Below, piece after piece: positions 5,026 through 29,947 of a stretch of DNA of 64,000 nt; within the stretch, counting starts at the first letter, position 1; every line of letters begins with the position of its first letter. Both the position numbers and the translations under genes were made by a program. This DNA comes from Geosiphon pyriformis uo1 (taxonomy: Eukaryota; Fungi; Glomeromycota): assembly GCA_016748015.1 (NCBI GenBank), contig JAAOMT010000088.1, forward strand, positions 1 through 64,000, written 5' to 3'. The notes under the pieces were generated by a model. That model made no database searches and was not told the origin of the DNA. It saw nothing but the letters and a program-made list of their open reading frames with translations.

Positions 5026-5027
5026 TT

Positions 5028-5044
5028 TGGTGCTCCCTGTGAGG
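5028..5044 (+). promoter_or_regulatory. tRNA primer binding site of B
   Basis: TGGTGCTCCCTGTGAGG 2 nt after the LTR; complementary to a tRNA-like 3' end ...CCUCACAGGGAGCACCA. Confidence 0.85.
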
Positions 5045-5086
5045 TTATAAATTCACAAAGACAGAACACTCTGAAAATTCACAAAA

Positions 5087-5550: not shown

Positions 5551-5634
5551 ATAGACAATGTACAGCAAATTAAATTAAGGAATTCAAATATATATAGCAT
5601 TTGAAAAGCAGCAAAAAATGATAGAACTTTCAAC

Positions 5635-6372
5635 ATAAATCTGTCAAATCAAATTCTACAACTCTCGAAACAATTATTTGACACAATTCAACAATTTTCT
5701 GCTCAAATAGAAATAACAATCAATAGAAAAAAAATATGCTATAAAGATAGGAGCAAGAAAGGGATGGGTGTGAATTTAATTAGAACTAACTGTTCCCATT
5801 TTTATACCTTACCTGAGAAAAGAATTTTACAAAAAAAAATTAAATTGTCTTGGGTGGGGCTTGAAGAAAGAGTAGAAGAATAAAAAAAAGTTTATAAAAG
5901 AAGATACTTAGTCCTTAAGCTTGAAAAAATTAAAGAAGCTTTAGCTCATAAGATTGATCTCTCCAAAACAGGGAAATAGACACCAGACAACACAAAAAAA
6001 TGGAAAGAAAGACTTTTGCCAGCTTATTAGTTCTACAAAATAGGTAAACAATTAGACTTAAAGATACTATATGAAGACTTCAGCCAAAAAACTTTCAACA
6101 AAGAAGCAATACAACAAGTAGAAAAATTTGTAGGAAGAAGCAATCTGACTCTACATTACAAAGCAGCATATCAACTATATGCCACTTTCTAATATTGTTC
6201 AAACATACTGTTGTATGGATCTATAAAGATGATAACAGTTAATAACATAGGATGAATTACCAATCAACAGTTCAAAGATCTATGAAAAACAATACTTGAC
6301 ACAACTATTGAACATTACACAAATGAAGACATAAAAACAGATACATATAATTTTGCAGAAGCTCAATTTTAA
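5635..6372 (+). pseudogene. 3' extra ORF (ORF3) of B, unknown function
   Basis: One unshifted frame of ~245 codons with six internal stops, all compatible with CAA/CAG/CGA C->T changes. Aligns by eye with 19277-19900 and 28297-28965; ends NFAEAQF* just before the PPT. Confidence 0.75.
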
Positions 6373-6386
6373 AAAGAGAGGAATAA

Positions 6387-7415
6387 TGTTATTCAAGTAG
6401 AAAAACCAATCCAAAGTTATGAAAAAACATGACCAGAACATAATATAATACAGAATAGTGTACAATAACATTAGATAACATATTATAACTTAGAATAGTG
6501 CAGGATAATGCATTATAATATGGGATAATACAGAATAACACATAATAACACTAAATAACATGTTCTAACATAGGATAACTAGTAATAATATAGAAAAATA
6601 AAGCAATAACAGAAATAACAAAGCAATAGTTAGCAATAACAAAACAATCAGAAGCAATCCTATAAAACTAAAAGAATGTATAAAAGTAAGTAGTTGTAGA
6701 AAGTAGAAACAAACAAACAAATAGATACAAATCATTAGACAAGAATCAAATATTCATATCATTTATATTCTATATTCATCTTCTGAAATAAATCAATTAT
6801 TAAGAAATCAGAATCATGAATTTATGTTCTCAAACTTTGTGAAATTTATATAAACTAACCATTGTTTTGTACTTTCATTCCAGGACAGATGCTCTTAGCA
6901 TAACTATCTCATACTATTAATGATTTGGACCAATTGCTCTTGATCATGATAATTGACAATACTAATTTATCTTTTATTTTTTTTATTTTTTTATTTTTTT
7001 TTATTTTTTTATTTTTATTTTTCTCTTGTGGAGTGACAACATAATAAAATTGATTGTCTGAAAATAGACATTGTAATAGTCTGGTAAAAGAAGGAAGCTC
7101 TCTTTAGGTTTTTGGATATTAACATTATCTTGATAGCTTACCAAAAGGATAAAAAGACAATGCCAGATCTTAATGACTATGCTTATTAGTTCAAAAAAGA
7201 AAGCTCACCTTTATAAGAAGTTGCAATCAGCAAAAACCAAAACTCTGTGCCTTATAACCAAAAAACTCAATGGGTAAATTCACAACCAATAAAATAAGAT
7301 CTTTAGAAACTGATAATTAAGATTATACCACCAAAAGCATGCAAAACATATATTACCAATACTTAAGAGCATCAAACATTACTATTTCCCTATCTCATCA
7401 AGTTTACTCATAACA
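6387..7415 (+). repeat. 3' LTR of B
   Basis: TGTTA...TAACA; preceded by a purine tract. Confidence 0.93.
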
Positions 7416-7849
7416 ATGTCTTTGACAATATTGAAGACAATCCAGAGCATTTTTACAAACATTACTAGAATCTAGCACCCACCTGAAAAAAACAGGAACA
7501 GTGTTTAGAACAGTTAAACATTTGACTTTGTTAATACTGCTTAATTCTCTATGACTTTCAATATTGTAATAAGTGTAACCTCATCTACAATCCACCATTA
7601 TGCATGATCTACACAATTTCAGAAGAAAAAAAACCAATCAGCAGCTGTGCAGCAGAATTGAAATTAACATTCAATTTTAATTCAAACTTCAACAACAATG
7701 ATGACAAAAACAATGGTTCCAGCTCTGTTAAAAATGGCAATAAAAATAACAACAATTCAGACTCTAATTCAAACCTAGAATATATTGTATTTTTTGATCT
7801 CTTTAAGGAACAAAAACTTAAATAGTTTAGCAATAATAATGAAAGTATT

Positions 7850-8240
7850 ATGCCAGAATGTGTGCATGATACTGATGTCAGATTTGATCTAAGATATCCA
7901 GGAAAAGAAGCCATTAAATTAGAATCACACTTGTGCACAAGCATTGATCTTAAAATAGTACTGGAAATTCTAGCAACAACAATGGTTCAATTAATATTGA
8001 AGAATAGTTTAGCAAAAAAGAAAATTAATATCAGAGGAGAAATCATTGACACAGAATATGTGGGAAATATTATTGCAATACTACAAAATAATTCAAAAAA
8101 AGCCTACATTATAGAGTCAAACAAAAAATAGTACAGGCAATATTTCTGTCACTGGTTAAAATAGCTTAGTTAATATTAATAGAAAACCAGAAAAAATTAG
8201 GAATTACAGCTAGAGAGATTAGTGAATTTGGATTAACAGA
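7850..8240 (+). pseudogene. dUTPase domain in pol of element A
   Basis: HDTDVRFDLRYP (motif 1), GEIIDTEYVGNI (motif 3), VQAIF (motif 4), REISEFGLT (motif 5); homologous to the better-preserved copy in D. Confidence 0.85.
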
Positions 8241-8699
8241 AAAGATAGATGTACTAGTTAATATGACAGAGGAAGAAGTTATTAACAAGAAAGAAATTAT
8301 TTCCATCTATTAATCAATTTCTATTCTATTATATGACCAGTACATGGTGGCCATAAAAAGAAAAGTAAAGAATCATGCTTAGATTTTTGAAGCAGAAGCA
8401 ACACTTTGTAAATCAGGAAAGATTAGATTAGTCAATCTATACATACTAGTCAAGAAACATAGTTACATTAAAATTCTCATTTACAACAATACAAGAGATG
8501 TCATCAAGATATCAGAAAGAACCATAATTGGATATTTAACCACTAAAATTGAAAACCAATCATCAAACACCATTCCAAACTTTCCACAACTGTGTGAATA
8601 TGTTGACATAACATCACAAATCATTTATAGACAGAATAAATGTTATTTGCTCCAACCAGAACAATTGAAACAAATGAACATAGAAAATTTAAACCCACT

Positions 8700-10007
8700 A
8701 TAACATATGCAACTCAAAATGTTACTCAATAACTTTACAGACATTTTTGCAAGTAAAAATGAATTTGGCAGAACTGATATAATCCAGCACCAGATTAAGA
8801 CTGGAGATGTAATATCAATCAAACAAAGAGCATACTGAATACCACCAGCCAGCCATAAGATCATTTGTCAAGAAATCAATTGAATGCTTGACAACAGACT
8901 AATTCAGTCATCAATAAGTCCATGGTTGTCACCAATAGTATTAGTTCATAAGAAAAATGGAAAAATCTGCTTTTGTGTAGATTACAAAAAACTCAATGAT
9001 GTAATTTATGGAGACAGTTATCCAACTTCATGGATTCAAGAATTATTCAATGCTTTTAGAGGAAAGAAATAGTTCTTAACACTAGACTTAAATAGTAGTT
9101 ATTGACAAGTAACAATGAATCCAGTAGATAAAAAAAAGACTGCATTTACAACAAAAGAAGGAAATTTTGAGTTTAAAGTAATGCCATTTGGTTTGATGAA
9201 TGCACTAACAACATTTCAACAACTTATGAAAATTGTCTATACTGAACTGTTATAAAAATCAGTAGTCATATATTTGGATAATACCAATGTGTTCTTAAAG
9301 ACATTCGATAATTATTTACATCATTTTCAACAAGTATTTGAAAGACTAAGAAGAGTTGGATTGAAGTTAAATGCCACCAAATGTTTTTCTGGCAAAACAG
9401 AACTGAAGTTTTTAGAACATGTTATAAGCAAAGATGACATCAAAATAGATTCAGACAAAATTGAGATAGTCAAAAACTTTTCAGTACTTACCAACTTGAC
9501 TGAATTACGAGCATTTTTGGAATTTGTGGAATACTATCACTACTTTATAAAAATTTTTTCCAAAATAGCTCAACCATTACACCAGTTTCAAACAAAAAAC
9601 ACCAAATATAATTGAATAGAAAACCAGCAAGAAGCTTTTGATATATTAAGAAGAAAGCTTATTCAAACTTCAGTATTAATCTATTCAAATCATAATAAGC
9701 CATTCATAATTACAACTGATGCATCAGGTCAAGTATTAGAAGTGATACTATCTTAAAAAAGACCAGATAAACAAGAACACCCAGTAGCTTATGCCAGCAG
9801 AAGCTTAAATCCAGCTAAAAAGAACTATAGAATTCTAACACTAAAACACTTAGCAATCTATTGGACAGTTATGAAATGGAAAAAATACTTGAGTCAAAAA
9901 TTTAACATGTATATTGATCATAAAAAATTAACTTCAATCCAGAAGCAAAAATTTGGAAATGATTGCCATGCCAGATGAAAAATAGAACTTTTACCATTTA
10001 ATTATAC
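8700..10007 (+). pseudogene. RT and RNase H of element A
   Basis: SPWLSPIVLVHKKNGKICFCVDYKKLN, KTAF...VMPFGL, YLDN (YLDD), TDAS, HPVAYASR. Confidence 0.9.
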
Positions 10008-10720
10008 TATTACGGGTTGGAGTAACAAGCTAATAGATAGCAAAAAAGAATAGGATTGTAGAGTAATGGAAATAATCAAAAGGAATTTCAACTTTAAAGA
10101 GCAAATTGAATAAGTATAGATTCAATGTGTGAGATCAGTCTTATAAAATATCTCAGTCACTATTCTTTTCAAAGGTAATTGGGGAATCTGAAGGTAGAGA
10201 GATAGTCTGTACTGTCAACAATTGATCACCACTGGTATAATTCTATGCCTCATGTCAACACTTTTAGAATTCAATATCAGGTATCAACTTGTGCTTTTCA
10301 GTCACATTTATTTAAATAATCTTCAAATGCTACAATTATATATGTCAAGAAAAGACCAACAAATAATCTTTTATCTTTAAGATGTTCAAATACTTGAAGG
10401 TAGAAAAAGGGAAATTAGCAATAAAAAAAAGATTGAGATAAAAGTTGTTATTTTATTTATTCTTAATTATTTAGATGCTTGTTATTACATGCTTTTCTAC
10501 AGCTAAGAGATTCATCACTTATATAACTATCAAAAGTGGTCAATGATTAGATCAACGACTAGGTCAATAATCAGATCAATGATTAGGTCAATGATTAGGT
10601 CATTAATCAGATCAACAGTCAGGTCATTGATCATTTTCTAAAAATAGTGTGGCTAATCATATGACATCAGTGGCTAATACATGTGATAATTAATAAGAAG
10701 TATAGGTTTCAATCATAACA
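10008..10720 (-). repeat. 3' LTR of C
   Basis: Direct repeat of 17020-17708; contains a 12-bp tandem array (AGGTCAATGATY) at ~10537-10633. Confidence 0.93.
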
Positions 10721-10729
10721 TCATCTTTT

Positions 10730-11345
10730 CCAAAGAGATTGAGCTCCGGCAAAATTAAGCTATTTATGGTGTAATCTATTGGAAGGGTTTTATCTAACTC
10801 AAAGCTAACTAGTTTGTTAAAGTTTTTTGTCAATAAGGTATATAACACTTAAGGTAAAATGAGTTTTGTATCCAAGAGACCAAATCTTTGTATTAGAGTT
10901 TTGGCTCTTTTAGCAATAGTTAAAACTCTTGAGACATCTAATCATATAATGCCCAAAATTTCTGCCTGTATCTCTGAAGTTGTTTTCTTTATGAGTTTTA
11001 TATCTTCTATGATTTCATCAAGGTGACTATAGAGTTCTAATTGTCTTCCATATGACAAGTTTTTGTCTATGAATAAGATTTCTTAAATTGTTTTTCCAAT
11101 TGTGCTGGAAGGTGAAAGTATTGCCACTGTTATACTTTCTAACAGATACTTATCTATTTTGCTACCAATTTTTTCTCTTCTGGTAGTAGTTTTTTTTGGT
11201 CTAATAACAGTATATGTTCTACTGTTGTCAGTTATAGTGGTCTGTTTCCAATAGTCAAAGTAGCATTTGGATAGTTTTTGATCCAATACTCATGGAGAGT
11301 ATAGAAGATGTTTTAAATGTTTTGATCTAAAAAATAATTGTTCAT
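10730..11345 (-). pseudogene. 3' extra ORF (ORF3) of C
   Basis: MNNYFLDQNI*NIFYTL...NATLTIGN resembles MIISQNIQQIFQKL...DLSITINGS of D. TATAAATA 46 nt upstream; one frameshift in an A-run. Confidence 0.6.
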
Positions 11346-11419
11346 ATCGATTAAAGATACCTCTGTTTTGGGAATAGTGCATTTATTTATACTTGATTTT
11401 TGTTGATTATTTAAGTCGG

Positions 11420-14400
11420 TATTACCACAACAGACAACCAATCAGGTCGTTTGTGATATTTCTTGAGTCGTGTGCCATGAACAGGATGATCATTGAGGAT
11501 TGTTCTAGATTGATCTTAAAGAATATAAGAACCATTGTTCAAAACTTTGTTGACTATAAAGGGTCTTTTCCACTGGTTAGAAAATTTATCACCATAGACA
11601 TTGTCTTTGTCTAAATGGTATTCTAATACCAAGTTACTAATACTTAAAGAAAGTGTTTTATAGGTTTTCTTCTTTTTAAGTTTTTCTTGAAACTGTTTTA
11701 TTTTTTCAAAAGCAACTATTCATGCTTCTACCAATGAGTCAAGAATGGTACTAAGTCTTTTTTGCAAAATGTTTTTGTAATTCCCTATTGTAATTTTTTC
11801 AAAAAATATTGTCTCAATGTCAGTTTTTATTGGTAGTGTTACCATTTGTCCATAGAGCAGATAAAAGAGTTCATAACTTGTTATGTTATGATTCACAGTT
11901 CTATAAGCAAACAAAGCTGAAGACAGTACTTTGTTCCATAAGTTTGTTTCTTCACTTGTTTTGGCTAAGGTTTCTATTGAAACATTTCACTAGGCCATTT
12001 GTTTGGGAGTAATAAGGAGAGGAAAGTTTGTGATGTATTCCCATTTTTCTACAAAGTTCTTCAACCAGTATACTGAAAAAAGCTTTTCCTCTATTAAATA
12101 ATAGTTCTTTGGGGCAGCCATGGCAACAAATGATATCTTTATAAATGAAATTGGCTATTGAGATTGCTGTTTGATCTGGAGTGGCTTTTGCTTCTACTCA
12201 CTTTGTAAGATAGTCAGTAGCTGTGATAATATATCTGTTGTCATCAGAAGTTATTTTTAAAGGTCCAACAACATCTATACCAATTCTGTCAAATAGTTGG
12301 CCAACAGAGATTGGATAGATGTCTTCTTTATAATTGGATTTTTTTTTTTTTGGCAGATGTCACAGGTTTTAATGTATTCAGCAATGTCTTTTCCTAAGGT
12401 AGGCCAATAATAGCGAGCTAAGGTTTTCTGAATTGTTTTAGTCTTTCCAAAATGTTCAGCTAATGAATCAGTGTGCATATTATAGATTACAATTTCTTTT
12501 TCTTTAAATCTTATGACTCTTTAGGGGCAGTCAGGATTTTTTCTGTTTCTTTTATATAGTTAGTTCTGGCAAATCAAATAGAAATTTGATTGTTTGCACA
12601 AATGTTCTCTTTGTTGTCAAGTGTATTCTAGTGGGTATTGTCCTTTACCCAAAAATTCTATTAAAGCAGAATAGTTGTTCAAGTCCATTATCATGTTTGT
12701 CAAAAGGAGAGTTACTAATAATTAAATTGGTTTGGTTTGAAAGGTTGTAATTATTGCTAGATAATAAGTCTGGAGAGAGCATCAGTGTTTTGATGATTAG
12801 CTCTTTTGCAGTATTGAATGTCATAGTCAAATTTGTCCAAGTAGAGTATCTAGTGAGTTATCCATTTATGTTCCAGCTTTTTTTTGTTGCACAGCCAAAC
12901 CAAGGCTTGATGATCTGTTATTACTAGGAATTTAGCACCAAAAAGATATTGATCCCAGTAATTAGTAGTCCAAACCACTGCTAAGCATTCTTGTTCAGTA
13001 ACTGTATAGGTCTTTTCTGTTGGTGTGAGAGTTCTACTTGCATATGCTATAGTATATTCTTTGCCATCTTCATCTTTTTGGGAGAGAACAGCACCAAGTC
13101 TATAGCCAGATGCATCAGTGTGCAGAATAAAAGATTGGTCCAAGTCAGGTTGTTTGAGAATTGGTTCAGTAACAAGTTTTTCCTTTAGAATTTCAAAAGC
13201 TTTTTGTTGATAAGTGCCTCAGTGATAATTGACATTTTTTCTGAGTAGCTAATTGAGAAGAGTGGCAATTTTAGAGAAATCTTTGACAAATTTGTGGTAA
13301 TAAGAGGCCAAACCAAGAAAAGAGCATAGTTCAGGAACATTCATTGGTTGTCTAATGTTCTGGACTTTTTCAACTTTAGCTGGTCAGGGAAGATTCTATT
13401 TTTTGTAACAAGATAACCAAGAAACTGGGTGGATTGGCATCCAAAGAAAGATTTAATTGGGTTTATCTTAAGGCCAGCATTTCTGAGCAGATCAAAAACC
13501 TTTTGCAAATGTTCAAGGTGTTCATTCCAGGTTTTTAAGTATACTATTATATCATCCAAATAAACTAGAACAAAGTTTTCTTTCACTGATTCAAACACTT
13601 TGTCTATTAGGCATTGAAAGGTAAGAGGAGTGTTTATGAGACCAAAAAGCATAACTGTGAATTCATAGATGCCATACTTTGTAATAAAAGCAGTTTTTTT
13701 TCTGCTTTCTGAATCCATCTCTACTTGCCAGAATCCAGCCATTAAGTCAATAATTGAGAAGAAAGCAGCACTATTGAATTTATCTAACATTGCATCAATT
13801 TTGGGAAGTAAGTACATATCTCTTATAGTGATGGCATTTAATTGGCGGTAGTCAACACAGAAGCATAGGGTTCCACCTTTCTTAGATATTACTACAACTG
13901 GAAAAGTCCATTTATTCTTGGTTTTTTGTATGAATCCAAGATCTTTTATTCGTTTTATTTCTTTCTTGATGAACTCATCATTGTGGCGATTGGATTGATA
14001 AGGCTTCAAGTATATGGGTCAAGTTTCTTTGGTGGTGATAGTGTATTGTATCATATGGGTATCACCTTCTTTTGAGATAACTGGGCTATTTTTAGCCAAC
14101 AGATTTTCAATGTCAACTTTTCTTTCTTCTGGTGAGAGTTTTCTTTGTTCTATCATTAGTGATTAGATCTTAGATGGTTCATTTTCAAAGGACTTTTAGA
14201 CTTTTTTCAATTTTTCTCTAGGTATCAAGCTGATTGGTTTCTAATCTTTGTAATAGATCAGGCATGATTTGTATTCATCACTTGGGGAATACAAGAGTTT
14301 ATTGCACCAGCACTGGGCACAAGGGCCATGCCACCAATAACTATATTTTGCTTTTTTACCAAGCTTTCTATCAAAAATTCTTCTGAGTATGTCATAGTAA

Positions 14401-15420
14401 GGCCAACAAATCATTTTGTCATTGATATTGATTCCTTCTTTATCTGCTTTAACGTTATCTAGTGGTTTGTCATTGCTGGTGAAAATAGTATAGGCAAGTT
14501 CAGCAGTTTCTTCTTGTTCTTTTTGATTTTCTTTTTTATTGCTCTCATCATCATCCGATTCATCTGATTGTTCTTCTTCTTGGTTTTGCTTGGTTACTGA
14601 AGGGGTTGTCCAATGGTAGCATTTAATCACAATGGACTTCTTACCACATCTGATGGTTAATTCACACAGTTTATAATCAAGTAGAGCTTTGGCTTTCTTA
14701 AGCCATTCATTGCCAACTATAATGGTGTATTCCTTGGCTTTAAAAACTTCCATATCAGTTTCAATACTGATACTATTGATGCGAACAGAAATGGCTTTGG
14801 TTATGCCCAAACCTTTCTTCTTATTACCATGTACATTGGTTATTGGTCGAGTGAAAAGTTCATCAATCTTTCTGCTAATTGCTTCTAAAAAGTGTTTGGC
14901 AATAACGCTCATAGATGATCTACTGTCTAAAATTAGGTCAATGAAATAACCAGCCACTTGGGCTTTACAGATTAGAAGGGTGACATTACTATTGTTAGTA
15001 AGTTCGGCTTGATGAGAGCATTTGTTGGTTTTTGGTGTCTTTTTTTTGGGATTTGTAAAGATCTTTTCTGAACTGTGGATGGGTTATTAACTGGCCAAAA
15101 GTTATGTGTGCTGGAGTTTCTATGAAATTTTTGACAACTAAATAGGGACCAGATTTTTGTACAATTTCTGGGGGTTCTAACTTTGAAGAATTTCTGAAAA
15201 CTTTAGTCTTTGGTGGCTCATTGTTATTAGCAGTTGATGTGAATGCTTTGTTTGGATCTAGAATGAAATCAACCTTGGCTTTCTTCTTCTTTCTTGTTGT
15301 TTCTGAGGTGTTGATTGCTAGTTTATCCATGTCATAGTTATCATTAGTTAGATTGAAAATATAAAAAGGGTTTTCTTCTGGTTGGCTTGCACTCTCACCT
15401 TTTGAAGGTATGCCTACCAA
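11420..15420 (-). pseudogene. pol of C (PR, RT, RNase H, integrase)
   Basis: IDLILDSRSS; FCVDYRQLN; LVYLDDII; LHTDASG...IAYASR; H...HFG...CDIC; integrase core; WKRPF (GPF/Y motif). Confidence 0.92.
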
Positions 15421-16967
15421 TTTAAAGACTGATAAACAGTGGCTTCAACTAAGAGATCCTTTCCAAAGAAATTGATGTTGGCATGATTAGGTCTTTAATT
15501 GGGGACATTGTTGTTAATAGATCTGTTATTTTGATTATCATTGTTTCTAAGAGCTGGAGGGGGTAAAAGAGGGTTGTTACAATCTCTTAAGAAATGTCTA
15601 GTTAATCCACAGCAATAGCACACAGGTGGGCCACGATTTTGTTGTCTTTGATAAGATGGTTGCTAAGGTTGATTGAAGTGTGGTTCAAATCTGAGTCTTT
15701 GGAGTTGCTAGTTATTTCTAACTACTTGGGCTAATGGTTCTAATAGCCAAGCAAAATTTGCTGTGAGTCTATCTATCAACTGTTTATTTGGGTCTTGAGT
15801 TTGGGCAACAAAAGAAGTAGCAGCTATTTGGGGAGCAGAAGCCATAATAGAAGCAGGAGCAAAAACTGAAAGTATAGATCCAAGATGCATTCTTTGATTG
15901 TCTTCTATTCACTAAGCAAGTTCAATGGCCATATCCATTGTGAGATTATCTTTTAGGACCAGGAGGGGCCAAAGAGCATATGAGAGATCAGTTCTCAATC
16001 CTTTTGTAAAGGAATGAATCTTTTGCTCTTCTGTCCAATTTCTACCAGAGTCTATATATTTGATTAGTTTTCTGATTGCTTTAGTGTATTCAGTTATGAC
16101 TTCACCAGGACCTTGGGTTTTTCTTTCTAATTCCATATGCCATTTAGAGATTAAGATGGGAGTTCTAAATTTTATTTCAAACTGGGTAGTAAAAGAGGTG
16201 TTATCTTCTTTAGCATTTGTCAGTGTCTATCTAATAATTTTTTGCTGGGTATTAACATTGGTTTCTTGAGAAAACCAAGTAGCAAGAGAGCCTTGGAAGT
16301 AGCCACCAATGATTTGGAACTTGTATTCATTATCATATTGGTTTGCTGTGGCAGCTCTTTCAAAATCATCCAACCATTCAATTGGATCTTAGGCATCATC
16401 TCTAAATAATAGTAATGGGGTGTTGTTTCTTTGCCCTAAAGCAGTCTGTATATCTTGGAGGGCAATTAGAATGTTTTGTTGTAAAGGGTCTTGAGCCATT
16501 GGTTCAGGTGTAACTGTTTGTGTGGAGTGTTCTGATTCACTTGAAAAGAGATCAAAAACAGAAGCAGTTTGATAGCTTTCTTTTTCTGTTTTAAGAGAAG
16601 TTTTTGTTGATTGATGGACAGCAATCCAAATATGGATTTGATGATTCAGATATTCAAAATCAAAGGGCTGTTGTTCAAAGGTTGCAGAATATAAAAGCTA
16701 ATTGATACTGTTGTTTCTTCCTTCAAAGTCATCTTTAAAATAAGCTTGGTCAAAATAATAGATTGTATAAGCTGTGTAGGTTTCAGCTGAATGCTCGTTC
16801 AAGAACCAGTTCCAAAAGTCTTGGAATTGTCTACTGGATTGTTCTTCAATGGAGAAGCAAATCAAGCAGGAGGGCAAAGGATTGAGTTCAATAAAGTCTA
16901 GATTGTTTTTGTTGTGTGCTTTAAAGTGTTCTTCTGATTGTTGTGGCAGGTATGAATAATCACCCAT
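15414..16967 (-). pseudogene. gag of C
   Basis: Starts just after the PBS; retrotransposon gag-like QGPGEVITEY segment; zinc knuckle CYCCGLTRHFLRDC; ends TTA AAT TGG TAG. Confidence 0.85.
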
Positions 16968-16997
16968 ACAATAGAAAACAAAGTAGATTTTGACAAT

Positions 16998-17013
16998 CTC
17001 ACAGGGAGCACCA
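16998..17013 (-). promoter_or_regulatory. Primer binding site of C
   Basis: Minus-strand TGGTGCTCCCTGTGAG, identical to the PBS of B. Confidence 0.85.
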
Positions 17014-17019
17014 CTTTTA

Positions 17020-17708
17020 TGTTATGGGTTGGAGTAACAAGCTAACAGATAGCAAGGGAGAACAGGATTGTAGGGTGATAGAAATAATCAAAGAGAATTT
17101 CAACTTTAAAGAGCAAATTGAATAAGTATAAATTCAATGTACAAGATCAGTCTCATAAAATATCTTAGTCACTATTCTTTTCAAAAGTAACTGGGAAATC
17201 TGAAGGTAGAGAGATAGTCTGTACTGTCAACAATTAATCACCACTGGTATAATTCTATGCCTCATGTCAGCACTTTTAGAATTTAATATCAGGTATCAAC
17301 TTGTGCTTTTTAGTCACATTTATTCAAATAATCTTCAAATGCTACAATTATATACATCAAAAAAAGGCCAACAAGTAATCTTTTATCTTTAAAATGTTCA
17401 GATATTTGAAGATAGGGAAAGGGAAATTAGCAACAAGAGAAGGATTGAGATGAAAGTTGTTATTTTATTTATTCTTGATTATTCAGATGCTTGTTATTAT
17501 ATGCTTTTCTACAGCTAAGAGATTTATCGCTTATATAGCTATCAAAAATGGTCAATAATTAGGTCAACGACTAGGTCAATGATCAGGTCAATGATCAAGT
17601 TAATGGTCAGGTCATTGATCACTTTCTAAAAATAGTGTGGCTAATCATATGACATCAGTGGCTAATACATGTGATAATTAATAAGAAGTATAGGTTTCAA
17701 CTATAACA
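17020..17708 (-). repeat. 5' LTR of C
   Basis: TGTTA...TAACA; adjacent to PBS; 24 bp (two 12-mer units) shorter than the 3' LTR. Confidence 0.93.
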
Positions 17709-19200
17709 ATACAGTACATTACAAAAAAGGAAAAAAAAAGGAAAATGCTGATGGTTTGTTGCAAATGAAACAAATCTGAATATTTCAATCCAAAAATATA
17801 ACAAAATCTAAACAATTGAAAACAAAAATATAACAAAAGATGAACACACAAAAATATCAACAACTTTAGCATTATATAAATACTCAACAGTTCAAGAAGA
17901 AATTATCTCAAAAAAAACAAAACAACATAAAACAACAATCAAAATATTTTATTAATCATCAAAATATACTTTACTGAAAAAACAAAAAAAATCTAAAGCA
18001 ATTAACCAGAGTTATTACAGAACTAAAAAAAGAGACAATATTGTTCAACATGCATTCAGATCTAACAGTGGAATATTTTCATAAAGAAGCAACAATAAAA
18101 AAAATTAGAAAAAAATACCACTGATTATCAATATATTCAAACATTATTCAATATGTTCAAAATTGTGATGTTTGTTAAAGAAAAAAAGGAACCAGACCCA
18201 ATAAATCATTGAAACCAATCAAAATGGGACAACCATTCAATCATATTAGAATTGACTTAGTTGAACCATTAACAATAACCAGTAGAAGAAACAGATATAT
18301 TGCAATAGTTATGAATTATCTTACAAAATGGCCAGAAACAAAAACCATTCAAAGAGCAAATGCAAAATTTGTTGTCAAATTTGTTCATCAAGATTTGATT
18401 TGTCAACACGAATGTCTAAAAGAATTACTATCTGACCAAGGAACTCATTTCATAAATAGAACATTAACCAAATTAAGTTAAAAATTTGGAATTAAAAGAC
18501 CATTATCATTACTATATCATTCACAAATTAATAGCTTAGTTGAAAGATTCAATAGAACATTGTGTGAAGCAATTGCCAAGATCAGCCAAAAAAGCAAAAA
18601 CAAATGGAATTTGTTTATATCATCAGTATTATTTGCTTATTGGACAATGAAGCAAAACACCACACAAACAACATTATTTAAATTAGTATATGGTAGAACA
18701 ACAACACTACCAGTTGAAATAGAAGTCAAAACATATTCAACAAAGTCAATAACAAAAGAGAATTTCCAAAGAACATTATTAAAAAGAACATATGACTTAA
18801 TAAAGACACTAAAAAACAAATGACAAAGAGCAGCTGATAACATTCAAAAGTCACAAAAAAAACAAAAAAAAAACATGATAACCAACTATCAGATAAACCA
18901 GTCAAATTCAAGATTAGAAACAAAGTACTTTTACATTGTATCAAAACAAAAAAACAATGAAATAGAAAATTTGACTCCAAATAGAATAAACCATTTCACA
19001 TAGAAGAAATTCTTGGAAATAAAGCTTATAAATTAAGATGGAACAACAAAATCTTAGCCAAAACAGCACATAGTGATTGATTGAAACCATATTATCATAC
19101 AGAATCATCATTTACCAATAATATTCTACAACTGGAAATACAATAAATACTAGTCTAACCAGATGAAATTCCACAAGATCTAGAACCAATCATTATTATT
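17709..19200 (+). pseudogene. End of RNase H and integrase of element A
   Basis: ENADGL; H...CDVC; IRIDLVEPL, LSDQGTHF, LVERFNRTL; no chromodomain seen. Confidence 0.9.
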
Positions 19201-19276
19201 AACACAAACACATTAAATTGATCAACCAAAAGAATATATAAAGATATAGTAGATGTGACAGAAAATATCAGAAAAA

Positions 19277-19900
19277 ATGGAAATTACTGATGAGATTTAC
19301 TCACTAGCATAACAACTTTTTTAATTAATTCAACAATGGAATATGGAAATTACTATCAACCAACAAACCATTTGATACAGAGATACCAGAAAAATACTCC
19401 AATACAAAGTACAGAGGAAACCAGAAAACACCATTGACAAAATAATTCTAAAAATAAAATTGGTAATAGAAGAGCCAACAAGTGTCATATCATGTCAAAA
19501 ATTAACCAAAGAAACTTGAAATTAGTGAATACAACACTTTTCAAAAAACTTTTGTTATTTCCACTTGAAACAATATTTGAATATCCAAAATTTGTATACA
19601 GATAAGACAAAGTGATTATTTGATTCAGAAATATTACAACAATTTGAGCAATTTGTGGAAAAGAATAATCTAACCACACAAACACAAACCATCTATCAAT
19701 TACAAAATGGATTTCAAGACCAACCAAAAATCTTACTCAATCCAGCAATAAACATTATTACTGTGAACCAAATAAAAAAAATAACTAATGTCCAATTTGA
19801 AGAGTTACAAAACAAAATAACACAAATAATTTTTGAAAAAAAAGTTCAAAAAATACTTAAAGACAGAGAGCTAGAATTAAAAGATCTCAATGGAGCTTAA
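19277..19900 (+). pseudogene. 3' extra ORF (ORF3) of A
   Basis: Single frame of ~208 codons with point-mutation stops: MEITDEIYSLA*QLF...MEITINQQTI...CYFHLKQYL...IITVNQIKKITNVQFEEL...DLNGA*. TATATAAA at 19235. Confidence 0.75.
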
Positions 19901-20110
19901 TATTAAAAAGAGAAAATAATGTTACTCTTAGAATATAAAAAATATAGTAGTATATAAATTAGCCAATCAGAAGTAGTCATAGTAAATATGAAATTTCAGG
20001 ATTCTTCTCAGAGGAATTGTAAGATTCCAGGAATTTCAGAATTCTCATATGAGGAATTGCAGGATTTCAGAAATTTCAGGATTCTTATATGAAAAATTGC
20101 AGGATTCCAG

Positions 20111-21073
20111 TATTATCAGTAGAATTTTAGCTATTAATTAACATGAAATTACCCTTATAAGTCCTATAATTAATTAGTATATTAATATCATTTCAAATTA
20201 TCATTTATTATTTAATCAATTATTACATATCACGATTCAATTAAAATAATCTAATTAGTATAACAGAAAGTAGAATGATCAAATTACACAATACTCTGAA
20301 CTTTGTAATATTCTAAAATTTGTCGAAATTTACAGAAATTTGCTGAAATTATGAATAGTTTACCTAAATTAATCAATAGTTCGGCAAAATAACTTGTAGT
20401 TTATTAAAATGTATCTTTAGTTCACCAAAGAAAAAAAGTGCAAGTTCATAGACTAGTACTACAACAAGTTGTATAAAAAAAGAGCTTTTTTTTTCAAGAA
20501 AATGTATCTTACTTTATATTTATCACTTAGAACCATTCCTACACACACAAAAAGAAATAAATATCAAATAAATTGAAAAACCAAATTTTTTAATTATTGC
20601 ACTTGGAAAATTCCCAAAAACCCAACTAACGTTTTGAAATTGATTAGCTACCAATTTCAGTAAACTGTTAGTGACTCCAGGCCTGAATAGAAAACGTTCC
20701 CTTGATAAAATCCTATTTCTTTTACATTTTTTTTATTTTTCTTTTCTTTTCTTATTACAATCATTAGGGTAGCCTATAGACGAGATTTCTGTAGAAGAGT
20801 GGACTTTCACAGCAAAGTAACTACACATTTTTTTAGTGAGCTTCCAGACGAGCAATTCCTGGGAAAGGGTTGACATTTACTACAACATAACTACATAAAG
20901 TAACTGACAAGGAATTGGCCATTCCACTTATAAGCCCAGCAAGTTCAAATTATAGAAGATAATTTGAAGATAAATTCAGTTATTGGAGGTTCAACTACTT
21001 CTAAAAAACGTGAATTTGCAACCAACAAACATTTACAATATTCAAGAAAAGAAACCAAAAACCTCTGGTAACA
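20111..21073 (+). repeat. 5' LTR of D
   Basis: Direct repeat of 28985-29947; start decayed to TATTA; ends TAACA. Confidence 0.94.
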
Positions 21074-21118
21074 TTTGGTGCTCTCCCACAGAAATAACAC
21101 AGCAACAACAAATTCAAA

Positions 21119-24100
21119 GTGGTGATCACACCAGACACAGCAACTCTAGAGTATTACCAGTTAATTTACACCCACTGCAAGCAAAGATTTAACATTCCAG
21201 ACGGAATTGAAGTTGTCAAAAAATCAGTATACCAATACATTGAAAACCATATCAACAATTATCTTTTTGGAAACTACAACATTTTAGAAGTTAAAAGCAA
21301 TCTCTACAATAATTTAGTGCACTATTCACAATTGGGAACAGAAGATCTGAACAGTAAAAACTTGCTACCTACTTTTAAGAACTTAATTTTAACATTATTG
21401 AGTATTGTAAAGAAAAATACCCAGTACAGTCTAAATACTTTTTTGACTTTGAATTAGAGACAGAAACAAGCAACAAAGGCAAACAAAGATTGAAGCAATA
21501 CTCAAGAACCACTTCAAATACTCCAATGTTACAAAAGACAACTGCCAAACATTTGCAAACACCTGAACAAGAAACCAGTGTCAAATTACCACTTTCTATT
21601 ATGCCATTTCTAATTTCACTTGTTCAACCACAAACACCAAGTTCACCACTTAACCATTTCTCCAGACCAGAAGATTTTCAGTCATCTAGAAATCCTACTC
21701 AACAACAGAAACCAATATCAACAAGTGCCAATATTATTGATTACTTACAGGAAAACAAAAGTAATCACTCAGAAAGCTTGGAAAGTGAAGAAACTAAATC
21801 AGAACCAGAAGAAATTACAGAAAATAAAGAAATGGCAACTGCTTACATTGCAAAAATCCCAGAATTCACTGGTAAAGACAATAATACCAGTTCTCAAGAA
21901 TGGCTTAACAAAGTTCAAAAAGCAGAAGATGTAAATGGTTGGATCGCAGCAAGAATGCTCAAAGCAATTTCCTACTTTTTCTAAGGAACAGCAAGAGAAT
22001 GATTTGAAAACTTAGAAGAACCATTTGAAAACTGACAAGCATTTAAAAATGTTTTTCTACAACAATTTACTGATAACAATACCTCTATCACTCTCAGAAA
22101 CTGCTTTCACAATATCAAATAAAAAACATCTGAAACTGTTATAACTTATCTTGGAAGATTTAACAAACTTTTGACAATTAGAAACCAATGACTACTATTC
22201 TGATGCTCAAATTCTGGATTAGTTTATAGCAGGGTTAAAAAACAAACTGATTAAGAAAGTCCATCCACATGCTCCAGCAGACTTAGCAACTGCTATTAGA
22301 CATGCAAAGAGCTATGAAATGGCAATAGAAGAAGCAAATTACACCAAGCTTGTAAATCTTGCAATTGGAAAAACCAGCTCAGCAGCTGAAGAAAAGATAA
22401 ACCAACTCACAAAAAAAGTTGAAAGCTACTTCACAAACCAACAATAACAGCAACAACAACCACAAAAATATCAACTCCCACAATGATGCAACCAAAACAA
22501 TTTTGGATCACCATCCAACAACCAACCTCAAAATTGTCATTATTGTGGAATTCCAGGACACTGGAAACGAGATTGTAAAAAATTACAAAGAGACCAACAA
22601 AACAGGAGTAATCAACATTACTCTTTACCACAACAATCCTATTACCAATCTCTACCACCAACCTATTATTCATCAAGACCACAAAATCAAAACAGTTACT
22701 ATCCACCAGCTCCACAACCAATGCAGCAACAATATTAGCAACCTTTACCAATTCAGCCATATCAGACACCACCCACTCAACAATATCAAGTACCAGCAAG
22801 AAGATTGGTTCAACATAACCAATTCACACCCCAAAATCAACTGCAGAATAACCACAACAGAATCAATCCAAATAACCAGTTGGTTCCCCGAAATTCTGGT
22901 CAGCAAAGACCCAATCAATATTACACTCAACCCAATTATCTTACAATACCAGAGGAATCGAATTTTCAACAAACTGCATTTTCTGAAGGTGAAGTTGCAG
23001 CGCCAAGATTAAATCCTTCCAACCACACCATTCTATCAGCTCAAATTACCCAAAATGCCAATCTGTCAGATATATTTTCATTTGAATTTGAAGCAAATGA
23101 ATCACCATTTCTGCTTAGTAATACAGCAGTCAATGAACAAAAAGCAATTACTGCTATGTACACAGAAGCTACAGTGGAAGGAAAACCCATTTACTTAATC
23201 TTAGATAGTGGATTGACTGGAAGTATCATTACTTACCAGCTGATGCAACAACTCAAACAAAACGTAGACAGACCAGCTCAAACAGTTATTGTCACAGCTG
23301 ATGGTATAAAGAAGACTTTAATAAGAGAAATTAATGATTTCTCCTTTTCAATTGATGGAATTACCATTTCAGTTAAAGTTCTTGTTATGGATACACCCCA
23401 ATACTAAGCTCTAGTTGGAAATGATTGGCTTCTCAAGGCCAATACAAACCTGAACTGGGAAACTCAAAAACTTAAAATCTCATACCAAGGACAATATACC
23501 ATAGTACCTGCAACCTATGGTACTTTTAACAAATGATCAGAAAAAGCCCCAGTATTTGAATTTGAAGAGAAGAAAAAAATGCCACTTACTGAAACCTACA
23601 TGGCTCTTGAATTAACATTCAATTGGACTGAAGAAACAGAACAGGAGATTTTTGAAGAATTAAGAAGATGGAAGAAAGTTAGATATTTTACACCAGAACC
23701 ACGAAAAGAATCATCATACATTTCACTAAAATGCAAAGATTGCAAAAAGAAGCTTTTATTTATAAGAGTCTGTATTTCTCCAGAAGAGAAATATGAAACT
23801 CGTATCTGTTACTTTTGCAAAGCATGTCATAGAGAACGATTTGGATTTCCAAAAAGAAGTGGAAAATGGGACAACACACCTTGTCTTATATGTGGAAAAA
23901 TCCTATCAGAAGAATGCAATTGGATTAATGTAGCAATAAGAGGAGAAGTATGTAATCAAACCTGTCAATATGCTCTATCAATTTCGGAAAAAGTCAAAAG
24001 AGGAACACCATTTGATGTAGCATACAACAGTGCTCTCAATAAACTTTACCACTACCCTTATGATACTGAAATCATTTTTGACTTAGCAATAACATTAATC

Positions 24101-27100
24101 AATGAAGCCACCCAAGAAAATGTCCGCCAAATGAAAGAAGCTGAATATATTAAGTATATTATAGAATTAGCTGGATTTAATTATGAAGATAAAGTAAAAA
24201 CCTACCACCAAATTGCAAACCACACATATCTGACCAAAGAAGCTCAAATTCAACGATTAGAGCAAATGAACATTCAATTGTGTGAAGAATGTGTTATGCT
24301 TTGTGATGACCAATGGTGTTTAGAATGTTATGCTTTTAGCATTTTTCTGCCAGATGAGAATGATGAAAATGAAATTGAATTTGGAGTATCTGAACTAGTA
24401 GAAGAACTACCAACCACCCTCATCTATCTTTTTGAAAAGCAACCACCTCTACAACTTAAATATTTTGACAACCATGGCCAAGGAATTAGACCAGAAAAAG
24501 CACACGAAATTGATGCTGGATATAATCTAAGATACCCAGGAAAAGATATTTTGGTTCTCCAACCAAAGTCCTTGACAAAAATCAATCTCAAAATTGTTCT
24601 TGAAATTCTACCAGGAGCAATGGTTCAAATTGTCTTCAGATCATTATTGTCAAGCAAAGGAATCAATATTAGAGGAGGAGTTATAGATGCAGGATACACT
24701 GGAGACATTACCATCATGTTACAGAATGAGACAGACAAACCATTCAAAATTGAACATGCTGAAAAAATTGCTCAAGCAATTTACTTACTCTTAATCAACA
24801 TTTCGGGTTTACAATCAGTAAACAACAGAGAACAATTGGGAAAAAATAAAAGAGAAACTCAAGGTTTTGGTTCAACTGGACGATTTACAGTTCCAGTAAA
24901 CATAGCTCTTAATACACAAAATGAATCTCACCAGATTCTTCAACTTCCCCAGCCAATTACCATTTCACCTTTTAGAGAACATCACGAAATTTACACTTGC
25001 TCAAAACTCACTACTACACAACAAATCTTTGAATCCAATAAACAAATCTGTTTAAAGCATGAAATCTCAATTCCCAACGTTTATATTTCCAAAGGAATGA
25101 AAAAATTTCAAGTTACATTCTACAATCCCAATAATTACCCTATTGTCTTATTAAACAAACTAGAGATTGGAATCATACACAGCAATATTTTTCAAGATGA
25201 AAACTCTCAAATTGTCTCTAATTTCATCAAAATTGTAAGACACACTCTACTCTCAAATCCAAATATCATTCCCACTACTGAAAACTACCACTTTTTAGAA
25301 GAAAAACTCTCTTGGATCAACATAGGTCTCTTAGAACTTTAACAACAAAGACAATTGAAACAATTGATAGCTGAATTTGCAGATATATTTGCAAAAGACA
25401 ACAATGACTTGGGAAAAACGGACATTGTTCAACATCAGATCCATACAAGAGATGCTCCACCAAAACGTCAACAAGCTTATCAAGTGCCACCTGCCAGCCA
25501 CCAATTCATCAGAGAAGAGGTCCAAAAAATGCTCAATAATGGATTGATTCAACCATCAAAAAGTTCTTGGGCCTCACCAGTAGTTTTAGTTAAAAAGAAA
25601 AACGGAAAAATCAGATTCTGTGTTAATTATAGACAACTGAATAGTGTTATAATTGGAGATGCCACCCTCTTCCAAGAATTGATGACATGCTAGATGCTCT
25701 AGGAAAAGCCAAGTTCTTCTCAACTTTAGACTTGGAAAGTGGATACTGGCAAGTCAAAATGGACCCAAAGACTGACCCAAGACAGCATTTACCACCCAGA
25801 GAGGAAACTATGAATTTAATGTTATGTCTTTTGAACTCTGCAATGCACCAATAGCATTTCAGCGACTCATGGATGTTGTATATAAAGGACTCTTGTGGCA
25901 ATTAGTAGTTGTCTATCTTGATGACACTGATGTATACTCATCAAGCTTTGAGACTTATCTTATTTACCTGTGAGAAGTTTTTCAATGATTATGGAAAGCA
26001 AAATTAAAGTTAAACATTGAGAAATGTCATTTTGAAAAAACAAGCTTGATCTTTCTTGAACACATAGTTAGTAAAAATGGAGTCAAACCAAATTCAGGAA
26101 CAATCAGTGCTGTCAAAAACTTTCAAACCCCCAGAAATACTACAGAACTAAGAGGATTTGTAAAATTAGCCTCTTACTATCAAAAATTCATAAAAGAATT
26201 CTCAGAAATTGCCAAACTATTCAATTATCTTATTAACAAAAACATACCATACAAATGGACTGAAGAACAACAAAATTGACAACAGCCCCAGTTCTTGCTT
26301 ACCCAGACTTCAACAAATGATTCCAATTAGCCATTGATGCTTTACACATAGCATTTGGTGTCATCTTATCACAATTGGATGAAAATGACCAGGAACAAGT
26401 TATTGCCTATGCCAGCAGAACTCTTAAGCCAACAGAACTCAAATATGGCTCAACTGAATTGGAAGCTGCTGCAGTCATCTGGGCTCTCAAACACTTTCAA
26501 CAATATCTGAAAAATGGAAAAAAATTTGACATAATAACTAACAATATTGGCCTCAAATAGCTTAATAAAAAGAAAACTGAACAAAGTGCCAAACAGTCTC
26601 AATGGAATGACTTCTTAACAGACTACAGATATATTGTACATCACAAACCAGGAAAACTACACACCAATGTTGATAGCCTCTTAAGAATGAGACAATATTA
26701 ATACCAACATCAACACCAACAAAACACCAACAAATTTAACAGCAGAACAAACAATGAGATCAACAACAATAGATCCAGAAAACTACAACAACATTAAAAA
26801 CTATTTGAAGACTCTCACCATGCCAGAAAATTGGTCTCCAAGTAAAAAACATCAATTACAACACCAATCCAAACAATATTTTATACACCATAACAAAATA
26901 TATTACAAAAATCATAAAAACCCAAACCAACCACTCAGATTAGTACAGGAAAATGAAAAAGAAACAATTCTATACAACATGTACACAAATTTTTCTTCAG
27001 CACACTTGGGAAGAGATGGAACAATTTAAAGAACTTTTGAACATTATTTTTGGCCTCACATGCAAAAAGACATTCGATAATATGTAGAATCTTATGATAG

Positions 27101-28150
27101 TTGTCAAAGAAAAGGAGAAACTTGTCCCACAGAACCTTTAAATCCAATCAAAGTTGGACAACCTTTTGACAGAGTTGGAATTGATTTAGTCGGATCATTA
27201 CTTATTACAATCCAAGGAAACCATTATATTGCAGTTGCAGTGGATTATCTTACTAAATGGCCTGAAGCTAGAACCATCCAAAGAACAGATGCAAAATCAG
27301 TAGCAAATTTCATCTATGAAGACATTATCTGTAGACATAGATGCCCAATTGAACTCTTATCTAATCAAGGAACACATTTTGTAAACAACTTGATACAAGA
27401 AATTTGTGAATGGTTTAATGTCAAAAGACTTCTATCATCACCTTATCATCCTCAAACAAATGGACTTGTAGAACATTTCAACAGAACATTGTGTGAATCT
27501 CTAGCCAAAGTCTCAACAGACTTTGAGCAGGAATGGGATATTTTTATTCCATTAGTGTTACTAGTATACAGAACACTAAAACAAAATACTACAAAACACA
27601 TACCATTTGATCTTACTTATGGAAGGACAGCAACATTACCAATTAATTTTACAGTAGAAACATACCCAGTGCAACCAATCAATGAAGAAAACTTTCAAGA
27701 AACACTCCAAAGAAGAGCCTACACTCTTTTTAGTACATTAGAAGGAAAAAAAAAATAGCAGCAACTCATATTGAACATTCCTAAGCTCAACAAAAAGAAA
27801 GACATGACAATAAACTACCACCTATTACCAATGAATTTAAAGTTGGAAATAAAGTTCTTTTACACAGAACTAAGGCTGAAAAACAATGAAGTGGAAAATT
27901 TGAAAACAAATGGGATGGATTATTTTATATTCACAAAATTCTAGACAATGAATCATACAAGTCAAGACTTGATGACAAAATACTAGCAAAAGTTGCACAT
28001 GGAAACAGATTGAAACACTATCATTCCAGAAACAATCCTGAACCATTAATTCCACAAATTGGTACACATTCCCCTTTAATTAATTCTGAAGATATTCCCC
28101 GAAATTTAGAACCAATAATTATAATAGAACAACAACCAAACTTGAACACT
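21119..28150 (+). pseudogene. gag-pol of D (gag, PR, Cys-rich domain, dUTPase, RT, RH, IN)
   Basis: CHYCGIPGHWKRDC at 22535-22576; IYLILDSG; AHEIDAGYNL, GGVIDAGYTGDI, KIAQ, RETQGFGSTG; FCVNYRQLN, YLDD; VIAYASR; DYLTKWPEA, YHPQTNGLVE. Knuckle, PR, dUTPase and start of RT share one frame. Confidence 0.93.
24450..24885 (+). CDS. dUTPase domain within ORF 23579..25342
   Basis: All five trimeric dUTPase motifs are recognisable: DAGYNL, RSLL (RSS), GGVIDAGYTG, KIAQ, RETQGFGSTG. Confidence 0.93.
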
Positions 28151-28296
28151 TAAATTTTACAATAATTCTCTAATAAACACAAAGACAAAAATAGTAAATA
28201 AATTACAAAAACACCTAAACCCAAAAACAAATAAAAACTCCATATTCCAAAAATAATTTTCTTTATTCTTTCTTTTCATAGTTAGTCAATTTTATC

Positions 28297-28965
28297 ATGA
28301 TTATTTCCCAAAATATTCAACAAATATTCCAAAAGTTAATGTTAGCATTGAAAACACTTCCTGACTTATCCATAACAATTAATGGAAGTCAAATTAATTA
28401 CATTCAGAAAGAAATCACAGTCCCAGTAGCAAATCATTCACAGAATTATCACCCCTATAGAAAAAAAACAAGAAGTTATTCTGAAAATAGGTTACTAAGA
28501 CTTTTGAAGCAAGCACTAGAAGAAAATCTTTTAATTGCCCCTATTGACATTCCACCAAATGCTACAATGCAACAAAAACTTCTACTATTTCTCAATGAAC
28601 AGAACAATGAACACATCTCTATTTATAAATACTTTCACATTGGAAAGACACTTTATGAACGAAAAATGGAACTTAAAGCAACAAATCTCACTTCTGAAGC
28701 TATACAAAAACAAATCTACAATGAATTCAAAACAGCAGCTGGACCAACAAACACTTGCTACAAACTTAGAGCAGCTTTTAGACTCTATAATTTGTTTAAT
28801 ATTTGTGAAAATGTTCTTTAAAATCCAATACTGCAACCAATAAAAGTCCAATACATTGGCAAACTCACAGAACTAAAATTTCAACAATTTTCAGACCAGA
28901 TTACTTCAATTATTTTGGATCACTATCTCAATATTACAGATAGTGCTTGGACTTCGATGGAGCTT
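28297..28965 (+). pseudogene. 3' extra ORF (ORF3) of D
   Basis: 174-aa ORF continues past a single TAA (probably CAA) as NPILQPIKVQYIGKLTELKFQQFSDQI; homologous to ORF3 of A, B and C. Confidence 0.8.
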
Positions 28966-28984
28966 AGTCTTGAGGAGAAGATTA

Positions 28985-29947
28985 TGTTACCAGTAGAATT
29001 TTAGCTATTAATTAGCATAAAATTATCCTTATAAGTCCTATAATTAATTAGTATATTAATATTATTTCAAATTATCATTTATTATTTAATCAATTATCAC
29101 ATATCACGATTCAATTAAAATAATCTAATTAGTATAACAGAAAGTAGGATGATCAAATTACACAATACTTTGAACTTTGTAATATTCTAAAATTCGCCGA
29201 AATTTACAGAAATTTGCTGAGATTATGAATAGTTCACCTAAATTAATCAATAGTTCAGCAAAATAACTTGTAGTTTATCAAAATGTATCTTTAGTTCACC
29301 AAAGAAAAAAAGTGCAAGTTCATAGACTAGTACTATAACAAATTGTATAAATGAAGAGCTTTTCTCTTCAAAAAAATGTATCTTATTTTAAATTTATCAC
29401 TTAGAACCATTCCTATACACACAAAAAGAAATAAATATCAAATAAATTGAAAAACCAAATTCTTTAATTATTGCACTTGGAAAATCCCCAAAAACCCAAC
29501 TAACGTTTTAAAATTAATTAGCTATCAATTTCAGTAAACTGTTAATGACTCCAGGCCTGGATAGAAAACGTTCCCTTGATAAAATTCTATTTCTTTTACA
29601 TTTTTTTTATTTTTCTTTTCTTTTCTTATTACAATCATTAGGATAGCCTACAGACAAGATTTCTGTAAAAGAGTGGACTTTCACAGCAAAATAACTACGC
29701 ATTTTTTTAGTGAGCTTCCAAATGAACAATTCCTGGAAAAGAGTTGATGTTTACTACAACGTAACTACATAAAGTAACTAGCAAGGAATTGGCCATTCCA
29801 CTTATAAGCCCAGCAAGTTCAAATTATAAAAGATAATTTGAAGATAAATTCAGTTATTGGAGGTTCAACTACTTCTAAAAAACATGAATTTGCAACCAAC
29901 AGACATTTACAATATTCAAAAAAAGAGACCAAAAACCTCCAGTAACA
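28985..29947 (+). repeat. 3' LTR of D
   Basis: TGTTA...TAACA followed by TSD CCAG. Confidence 0.94.

Follow-up and report, generated by a model that had tools for sequence, protein, structure and literature searches.

We describe ORF3, a third open reading frame (ORF) carried just upstream of the 3' long terminal repeat (LTR) by four Ty3/Gypsy retrotransposons (A to D), which are nested in a 64,000-nucleotide stretch of the genome of the glomeromycotan fungus Geosiphon pyriformis uo1 (contig JAAOMT010000088.1, positions 1 to 64,000; hereafter the window). Together with its relatives, ORF3 forms a real, old and apparently undescribed accessory gene family in a clade of fungal Gypsy elements whose three-gene layout (gag-pol, a stand-alone integrase and ORF3) is unusual. 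We found no description of ORF3 or of a split integrase in these fungi in the literature on transposable elements (TEs), of which our coverage was incomplete.

The ORF3 gene family

A sequence-only reading of the window had proposed four related ORFs of this kind, one per element. All four are present, and the protein blocks that it quoted are found in their translations:

5635-6372, plus strand: ORF3 of B; 6 internal stops; first codon ATA, which is Met in the relative P0198
11345-10690, minus strand: ORF3 of C; frameshift near 11250, preceded by one stop and followed by 3; terminates within the 3' LTR
19277-19900, plus strand: ORF3 of A; 7 internal stops
28297-29004, plus strand: ORF3 of D; 235 codons, one internal stop (codon 175); crosses the polypurine tract (PPT) and terminates 20 nt within the 3' LTR

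Across the four copies, the ORF3 frame holds 1-7 stops, compared with 11-23 in the other two sense frames. By sequence comparison, the ORF3s of A, B and D are clear homologues, with BLASTP E-values of 4e-19 (B-A), 2e-10 (D-B) and 1e-7 (D-A) and z scores of 25.6, 15.2 and 10.4 in the same order in a shuffle test, in which 0/300 shuffles reached each score. At the DNA level the ORF3s show no mutual blastn match although the proteins remain similar, and third-position identity is 0.35-0.45 among A, B, D and L001, a metagenome element described below. A functionless passenger, or a frame that arises from base composition, could be suspected from the broken state of 4/4 window copies. Against both speak protein similarity that outlasts DNA similarity, the intact copies of L001 and of many gene models and a confidently predicted fold, and we consider this explanation highly improbable.

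The relationship of C is more remote. Taken alone, the window copy of the C ORF3 does not match the others (BLASTP against D, E 0.15; z -0.9 to 3.5). Intact 218-residue relatives of C align collinearly with the other ORF3s (profile-profile E 0.0013 over 167 columns); a rebuilt profile-profile alignment was weaker (E 0.041) and was equalled by 1/40 and 2/40 shuffles. Because the C-terminal tail proved to be a DNA motif and not protein conservation (see below), we repeated the homology test for C without it: compared end to end, 4 intact C-family proteins against 9 other ORF3 types gave summed z scores of 4.2-6.1, with 0/300 shuffles reaching each, and 5 unrelated control proteins had scored -1.2 to 0.3 in the version with tails. 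Through these intact relatives we accept the C ORF3 as a remote homologue at the sequence level. The proposed kinship of all four ORFs is thus direct for A, B and D (z 10-26), while for C it fails with the window copy by itself and holds via the intact relatives (z 4-6).

Is ORF3 a peculiarity of the Geosiphon genome? A D-type search gave 133 matches from 181 candidates; among the matches listed, 119/120 came from Geosiphon pyriformis and the remaining one was the window's own protein. The C-type search gave 130 matches from 438 candidates, with 120/120 of the matches listed from the same species, and the best 120 of 230 matches of a profile search (from 6,882) were likewise all Geosiphon. ORF3-related gene models in this species number in the hundreds. 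Among 367 stored proteins, 24 D-type and 30 C-type predicted models are full-length, as judged by start and end motifs and length, and align without internal gaps. Many Geosiphon 'hypothetical proteins', with P0117, P0144, P0170 and P0325 among the stored ones, are models that splice ORF3 to adjoining transposon pieces, including D-type/C-type and D-type/B-type fusions.

A scan over 1.84 billion representatives returned 87 matches, 18 of which were identified: 15 were from Geosiphon and 3 were full-length metagenome proteins (P0152, P0158 and P0201). In the Atlas, the Mucoromycota clusters at 0.93 and 0.91 may represent the ORF3 family itself. One metagenome locus, L001, was recovered out of 527 candidate stretches and shows the order reverse transcriptase (RT)-RNase H, stop, integrase (with one internal stop), 316-nt spacer, intact 230-codon ORF3 and a D-like PPT-LTR junction. 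Since an intact copy follows the integrase in this element, the ORF3 gene is not confined to the Geosiphon genome. The integrase core of L001 is 76% identical to that of D, 60% to that of A and 56% to that of C, and ORF3 identities fall in the same order (D 29%, A 25%, C not significant). A tree of ORF3 unites A, B and two further Geosiphon types in a single clade (100/100), with C as the long outlier. The comparison, of four elements only, fits vertical inheritance of ORF3 with its element. The sequence-only reading's view of an old, conserved, non-env accessory gene of a Gypsy clade is upheld by identities of 20-35% between homologues, by the intact copy in a diverged metagenome element and by a tree that roughly tracks the integrase.

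A stand-alone integrase and the 3' end of the elements

The first 30 kb of the window form a single nest, in which A hosts B and C within its pol and D within its 3' LTR (PR, protease; PBS, primer-binding site):

671..20110, plus strand: element A; gag and PR from ~671, dUTPase-like segment at ~7826, RT at ~9256, RNase H ending at the stop 17777-17779, integrase ORF 17840-19221, then ORF3 and PPT; 3' LTR from 19920, interrupted by D
3987..7415, plus strand: element B, 3.4 kb; LTRs 3987-5025 and 6387-7415 (84% identical); PBS at 5028; order LTR-PBS-gag N-terminal fragment (~5061-5500)-ORF3-PPT-LTR
10008..17708, minus strand: element C; LTRs 17020-17708 and 10008-10720; target duplication ATAC; PBS at 17013; gag-PR-RT-RNase H to the stop 12759-12757, separate integrase ORF 12688-11411, ORF3
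20111..29947, plus strand: element D; LTRs 20111-21073 and 28985-29947 (94% identical); target duplication CCAG; PBS at 21076; gag-PR-dUTPase-RT-RNase H to the stop 26699-26701, integrase ORF from 26754 or 26769 to 28153, ORF3

Matches to the Pfam families protease, RVT_1, RT_RNaseH and rve, together with tblastn positions, show the Ty3/Gypsy order PR-RT-RNase H-integrase for A, C, D and L001. B, C and D each have an LTR pair, a PBS, a PPT and a 4-bp duplication, and the 5' TG of the LTR has decayed to TA in C and D. The flanks of B, ACAT/ATGT, are mismatched at two bases and would represent a 4-bp target duplication decayed at CpG. A 5' LTR of element A was not found inside the window. B has neither pol nor integrase, and only a gag N-terminal fragment, which matches the gag N-terminus of A (z 6.7, 0/500 shuffles), lies between PBS and ORF3; B is a non-autonomous or internally deleted element. 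The location between integrase and 3' LTR that had been proposed for all four copies therefore applies to A, C and D and not to B. Complete B-type elements probably exist, because a B-type gene model elsewhere in the genome, P0187, fuses the integrase C-terminus to ORF3.

In the usual Gypsy layout, the integrase is translated within the Pol polyprotein. Here, 4/4 elements with an integrase (A, C, D and L001) have a stop in the pol frame 3-4 codons past the RNase H end motif, and the integrase lies outside that polyprotein, a layout variant with which the elements stay Gypsy. The intervals from pol stop to integrase start are:

17777-17840, plus strand: A
12759-12688, minus strand: C
26699-26769, plus strand: D
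772-799: L001

The integrase restarts after 24-68 nt, in frame 0 in A, +2 in C, +1 in D and 0 in L001. It begins with Met in L001, A and C, whereas D has ATA as the aligned codon and an ATG five codons upstream; the D-type model P0066 begins with Met at this position. Since the position of the stop is shared and the frames differ, it is unlikely to stem from decay, even with 3/4 copies decayed. Three cistrons are therefore the apparent layout of the clade, and ORF3 needs an expression route of its own. For Odin elements, a separate integrase ORF was not borne out by the accessible text of PMC9040795.

An AT-rich spacer separates integrase and ORF3, and a short motif adjoins the PPT:

28154..28296, plus strand: spacer of D, 143 nt (A 55 nt, C 65 nt, L001 316 nt)
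28959..28984, plus strand: GGAGCTCAAT-like motif and PPT of D; equivalents at 6358 (B), 19892 (A), 10747 on the minus strand (C) and ~3090 (L001)

A pyrimidine tract followed by AG precedes ORF3 only in the D spacer, and a conserved splice acceptor, noted there by eye, was discarded as it does not recur in A, C or L001. A bacterial promoter scan of the L001 spacer gave 5 sites versus 3.2 +/- 1.7 and is uninformative. The GGAGCTCAAT-like motif lies just 5' of the PPT in 5/5 elements, while the rest of the ORF3 DNA is unalignable. It holds the palindrome GAGCTC, appears by eye partly complementary to the PBS and is a candidate cis signal or ORF3 site. As it translates to GAQ(F/Y) in A and B and to ELNL/ELSL in C, D and L001, the same DNA is read in two frames, which rules out the tail of the C-terminal block as the protein conservation for which it had been taken.

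This layout bears on two alternative roles for ORF3. It could be an RNA-binding helper (in export, packaging, dimerisation or translational control) for the transcript that yields gag-pol, integrase and ORF3: with the integrase a separate ORF in 4/4 elements, the downstream cistrons need an expression device, ORF3 contains a basic linker, a DNA/RNA motif stands beside the PPT in 5/5 elements, and a viral coat protein appears among the Atlas matches, as does a translation repressor. However, the structural hints given below favour DNA-binding domains, and the Atlas matches, which share few features (146 and 120 of 256), are leads only, so that we regard an RNA helper as rather unlikely. ORF3 could also be an integration co-factor that anchors the stand-alone integrase, or the ends of the cDNA, at chosen chromatin, like the chromodomain of other Gypsy elements. 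In favour of this, A, C, D and L001 carry ORF3 directly behind the integrase, and the insertion of elements into one another fits a target bias. The integrase of L001, the one scanned in this part, ends in an SH3-like domain (SH3_Tf2-1, E 0.0018) with no chromodomain match. Yet ORF3 is kept in B, which has no integrase, it diverges far faster than the integrase (D versus L001, 29% versus 76%), and nesting is expected anyway at an LTR cover of 41% (41.2% of the Geosiphon genome; PMC11952901); the tethering role thus seems unlikely to a somewhat greater degree.

Decay of the elements and surrounding DNA

The LTR pairs differ at 159/1029 (B), 59/689 (C) and 56/963 (D) aligned sites, and 257/274 of these differences are transitions, in keeping with the heavy mutation of repeats noted earlier from the sequence. 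The observed/expected CpG ratio is 0.08-0.17 in the nest and 0.21 in L001. The C/T and G/A changes are spread over many contexts, which leaves repeat-induced point mutation (RIP) unsupported as the cause; since the transitions occur in so many contexts, decay through CpG methylation fits better than a specific RIP signature. The first 660 nucleotides of the window are not CpG-depleted (observed/expected 0.86 versus 0.09-0.16 in the adjoining DNA) and code for a HIT-domain protein (Pfam E 1e-5), whose frame continues past a TGA under code 4. This segment is possibly endobacterial DNA of Mollicutes type, either inserted at the start of the gag of A or joined to it in assembly.

Element D has a dUTPase between protease and RT (24490-24880, Pfam E 2e-17), and a dUTPase in A (~7826-8130) was recognised via DNA similarity and translation. 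dUTPases are rare in retrotransposons and are known from basidiomycetes and rotifers, as described in PMC5408684. Beyond the nest, a third D-like LTR at 35546-36516 (minus strand) is 79% identical to the LTRs of D and is probably solo. Of the further decayed Gypsy copies, that at 60013-63993 is C-like and covers gag-PR (73% identity), and that at 37621-40397 is a PR/dUTPase/RT fragment of A-like sequence (63-65%). Another retroelement is present in several related copies (66-72% identical) between 41300 and 60000; its RT and RNase H-like frames lie on alternating strands, and it looks LINE-like.

Predicted fold and possible role of ORF3

ORF3 encodes a soluble protein of 210-245 residues that does not look like an enzyme. 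An AlphaFold model from a 42-sequence alignment reached a predicted local distance difference test score (pLDDT) of 81.7 and a predicted template modelling score (pTM) of 0.66, compared with a pLDDT of 45 for an earlier model from a shallow alignment. It starts with a helix (7-21) and a beta-hairpin (25-38) at a pLDDT of ~70, which a basic, disordered linker (41-50) joins to a helical core (54-220, mostly >88). Given its location behind the integrase, where retroviruses and errantiviruses carry env, ORF3 might be env-like, or a movement protein, and serve spread from one nucleus, hypha or partner to another. However, the highest 19-residue hydropathy was 0.44-1.33 in 8/8 intact proteins, too low for a transmembrane anchor, and the same scan found no hydrophobic N-terminal stretch, as the sequence-only reading had held for the transmembrane segment. 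With its small all-helical core and no fusogen match, ORF3 is most improbable as an env-like protein, and this explanation is largely refuted. ORF3 is also only a third of the usual env size.

The domain, which the sequence-only reading did not recognise, was assigned to no significant known family by profile and Foldseek searches either. Pfam gave no significant family, the best PHROGs match among 9 ORF3 proteins (E 0.0012) was to a family of unknown function, the best match to PDB sequences had an E-value of 0.13, and Foldseek against PDB and viral structures returned 0 matches to the model at E<=0.001. No ORF3 match was found in phage genomes by tblastn, three scans of viral contigs confirmed nothing, and the ORF3 alignment contains no invariant catalytic-type residue.

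Below significance, the hints point in one direction. The ~130-residue helical core, in which a G-K-(S/T) turn precedes a basic helix, weakly resembles ParB/Spo0J/KorB, DUF1016_N (the YhcG N-terminus) and DUF3102. Profile-profile comparison of the turn and recognition helix with the three families DUF1016_N, DUF3102 and HTH_ParB gave E-values of 0.006, 0.01 and 0.29, all in one register, and a structural alignment to the Spo0J/KorB DNA-binding domain spans 90 residues, with a score below significance. In bacterial genomes, the DUF1016_N and HTH_ParB profiles cross-match weakly (loci L044 and L049; E 3e-4 and 1e-4), consistent with the match between the profiles. ORF3 differs from these proteins in that it has no ParB CTP-binding or nuclease domain and in its N-terminal helix-hairpin, which is of no known kind. 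Helix-turn-helix (HTH) domains of the ParB type in fungi have been described as fusions to adenine methylases (PMC4738411), not as a retrotransposon gene, and the accessible text of a 2026 preprint on methylase-carrying retrotransposons does not mention ParB, HTH or Geosiphon (10.64898/2026.05.21.726589).

We tentatively favour the view that ORF3 is a DNA-binding trans-regulator, which would bind the element's own DNA and sustain its transcription against CG methylation. This choice follows from the nearest fold hints, which are DNA-binding regulators; from the CpG depletion of the elements together with methylation and small RNAs at TEs in a related fungus (as reported in bioRxiv 10.1101/2021.03.30.436303); and from the fast, family-specific divergence, which fits each family recognising its own target. 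The helical core likely contains a ParB/KorB-type HTH and would bind nucleic acid through the turn-helix at 142-160, with the own LTR or the conserved motif beside the PPT as the putative target. In the nucleus, ORF3 might keep the element transcribed in a repeat-methylating host, as an anti-silencing or activating factor, and it may be expressed from its own short transcript or by re-initiation.

The scores behind this assignment are all below significance. The DUF1016_N profile reached a best E-value of 0.0028 and matched 5/42 members, and P0125 scored 14.6 bits, below the cut-off of 32.8. In controls, DUF1016_N stood above shuffles, DUF3102 partly so and HTH_ParB not above the reversed control. 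The four weak lines agree on one helix register and one superfamily (ParB/KorB-type), and none is significant alone. The nucleic-acid-binding factor envisaged by the sequence-only reading thus gains weak structural support, through ParB-type HTH hints below significance; the silencing antagonist or transactivator that it also suggested is conjecture. That every fold match falls below significance would suit a protein that acts by binding a host protein, e.g. of the RNA interference (RNAi) or methylation machinery, the HTH likeness being due to chance or vestigial. Fast divergence suits an arms race, and invariant catalytic-type residues are lacking, but the agreement of four weak lines on one register and one superfamily speaks against this reading, and we judge a host-protein binder unlikely.

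How does a DNA-binding ORF3 compare with known systems? Bdelloid rotifer Ty3/Gypsy elements also carry a sense ORF between integrase and 3' LTR (env-like, GDSL or DEDDy), ORF3 of Vesta6c is similar in size (~210-240 aa), and TelKA2n keeps its ORF3 in a non-autonomous derivative without most of gag and pol; the ORF3s of LTR elements have varied origins (all in the accessible part of PMC5408684). Unlike these, the Geosiphon ORF3 has no transmembrane segment or enzyme motif and no sequence match to them, is common to all four families whereas theirs are family-specific, and lies behind an integrase with an ORF of its own. In its proposed role, ORF3 would resemble VANC of the Arabidopsis VANDAL DNA transposons, which binds noncoding DNA of its own family and counters methylation (PMC5735166, PMC10398659); the likeness lies in this role alone and would bridge another TE class and kingdom.

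In summary, extra ORFs behind the integrase were known already, few of them with an assigned function, and ORF3 is common to a whole diverged clade, with intact copies and a confident model that make it directly testable. Several hundred Geosiphon 'hypothetical protein' gene models are thereby recognised as transposon cargo. If ORF3 binds the DNA of its own element, plant VANC proteins would have in it a counterpart among retrotransposons, and the Archaeosporales LTR burst a candidate cause. More speculatively, and in its entirety doubtful, a Glomeromycota Gypsy clade with gag-pol and a stand-alone integrase may have acquired ORF3 as a ParB/KorB-type DNA binder from bacteria or phage, with which each family would recognise its own LTR and escape silencing by CG methylation, B-like copies keeping ORF3 as the one gene worth carrying. 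If true, LTR recognition and escape from silencing would help to account for the spread of LTR elements to ~40% of the Geosiphon genome.

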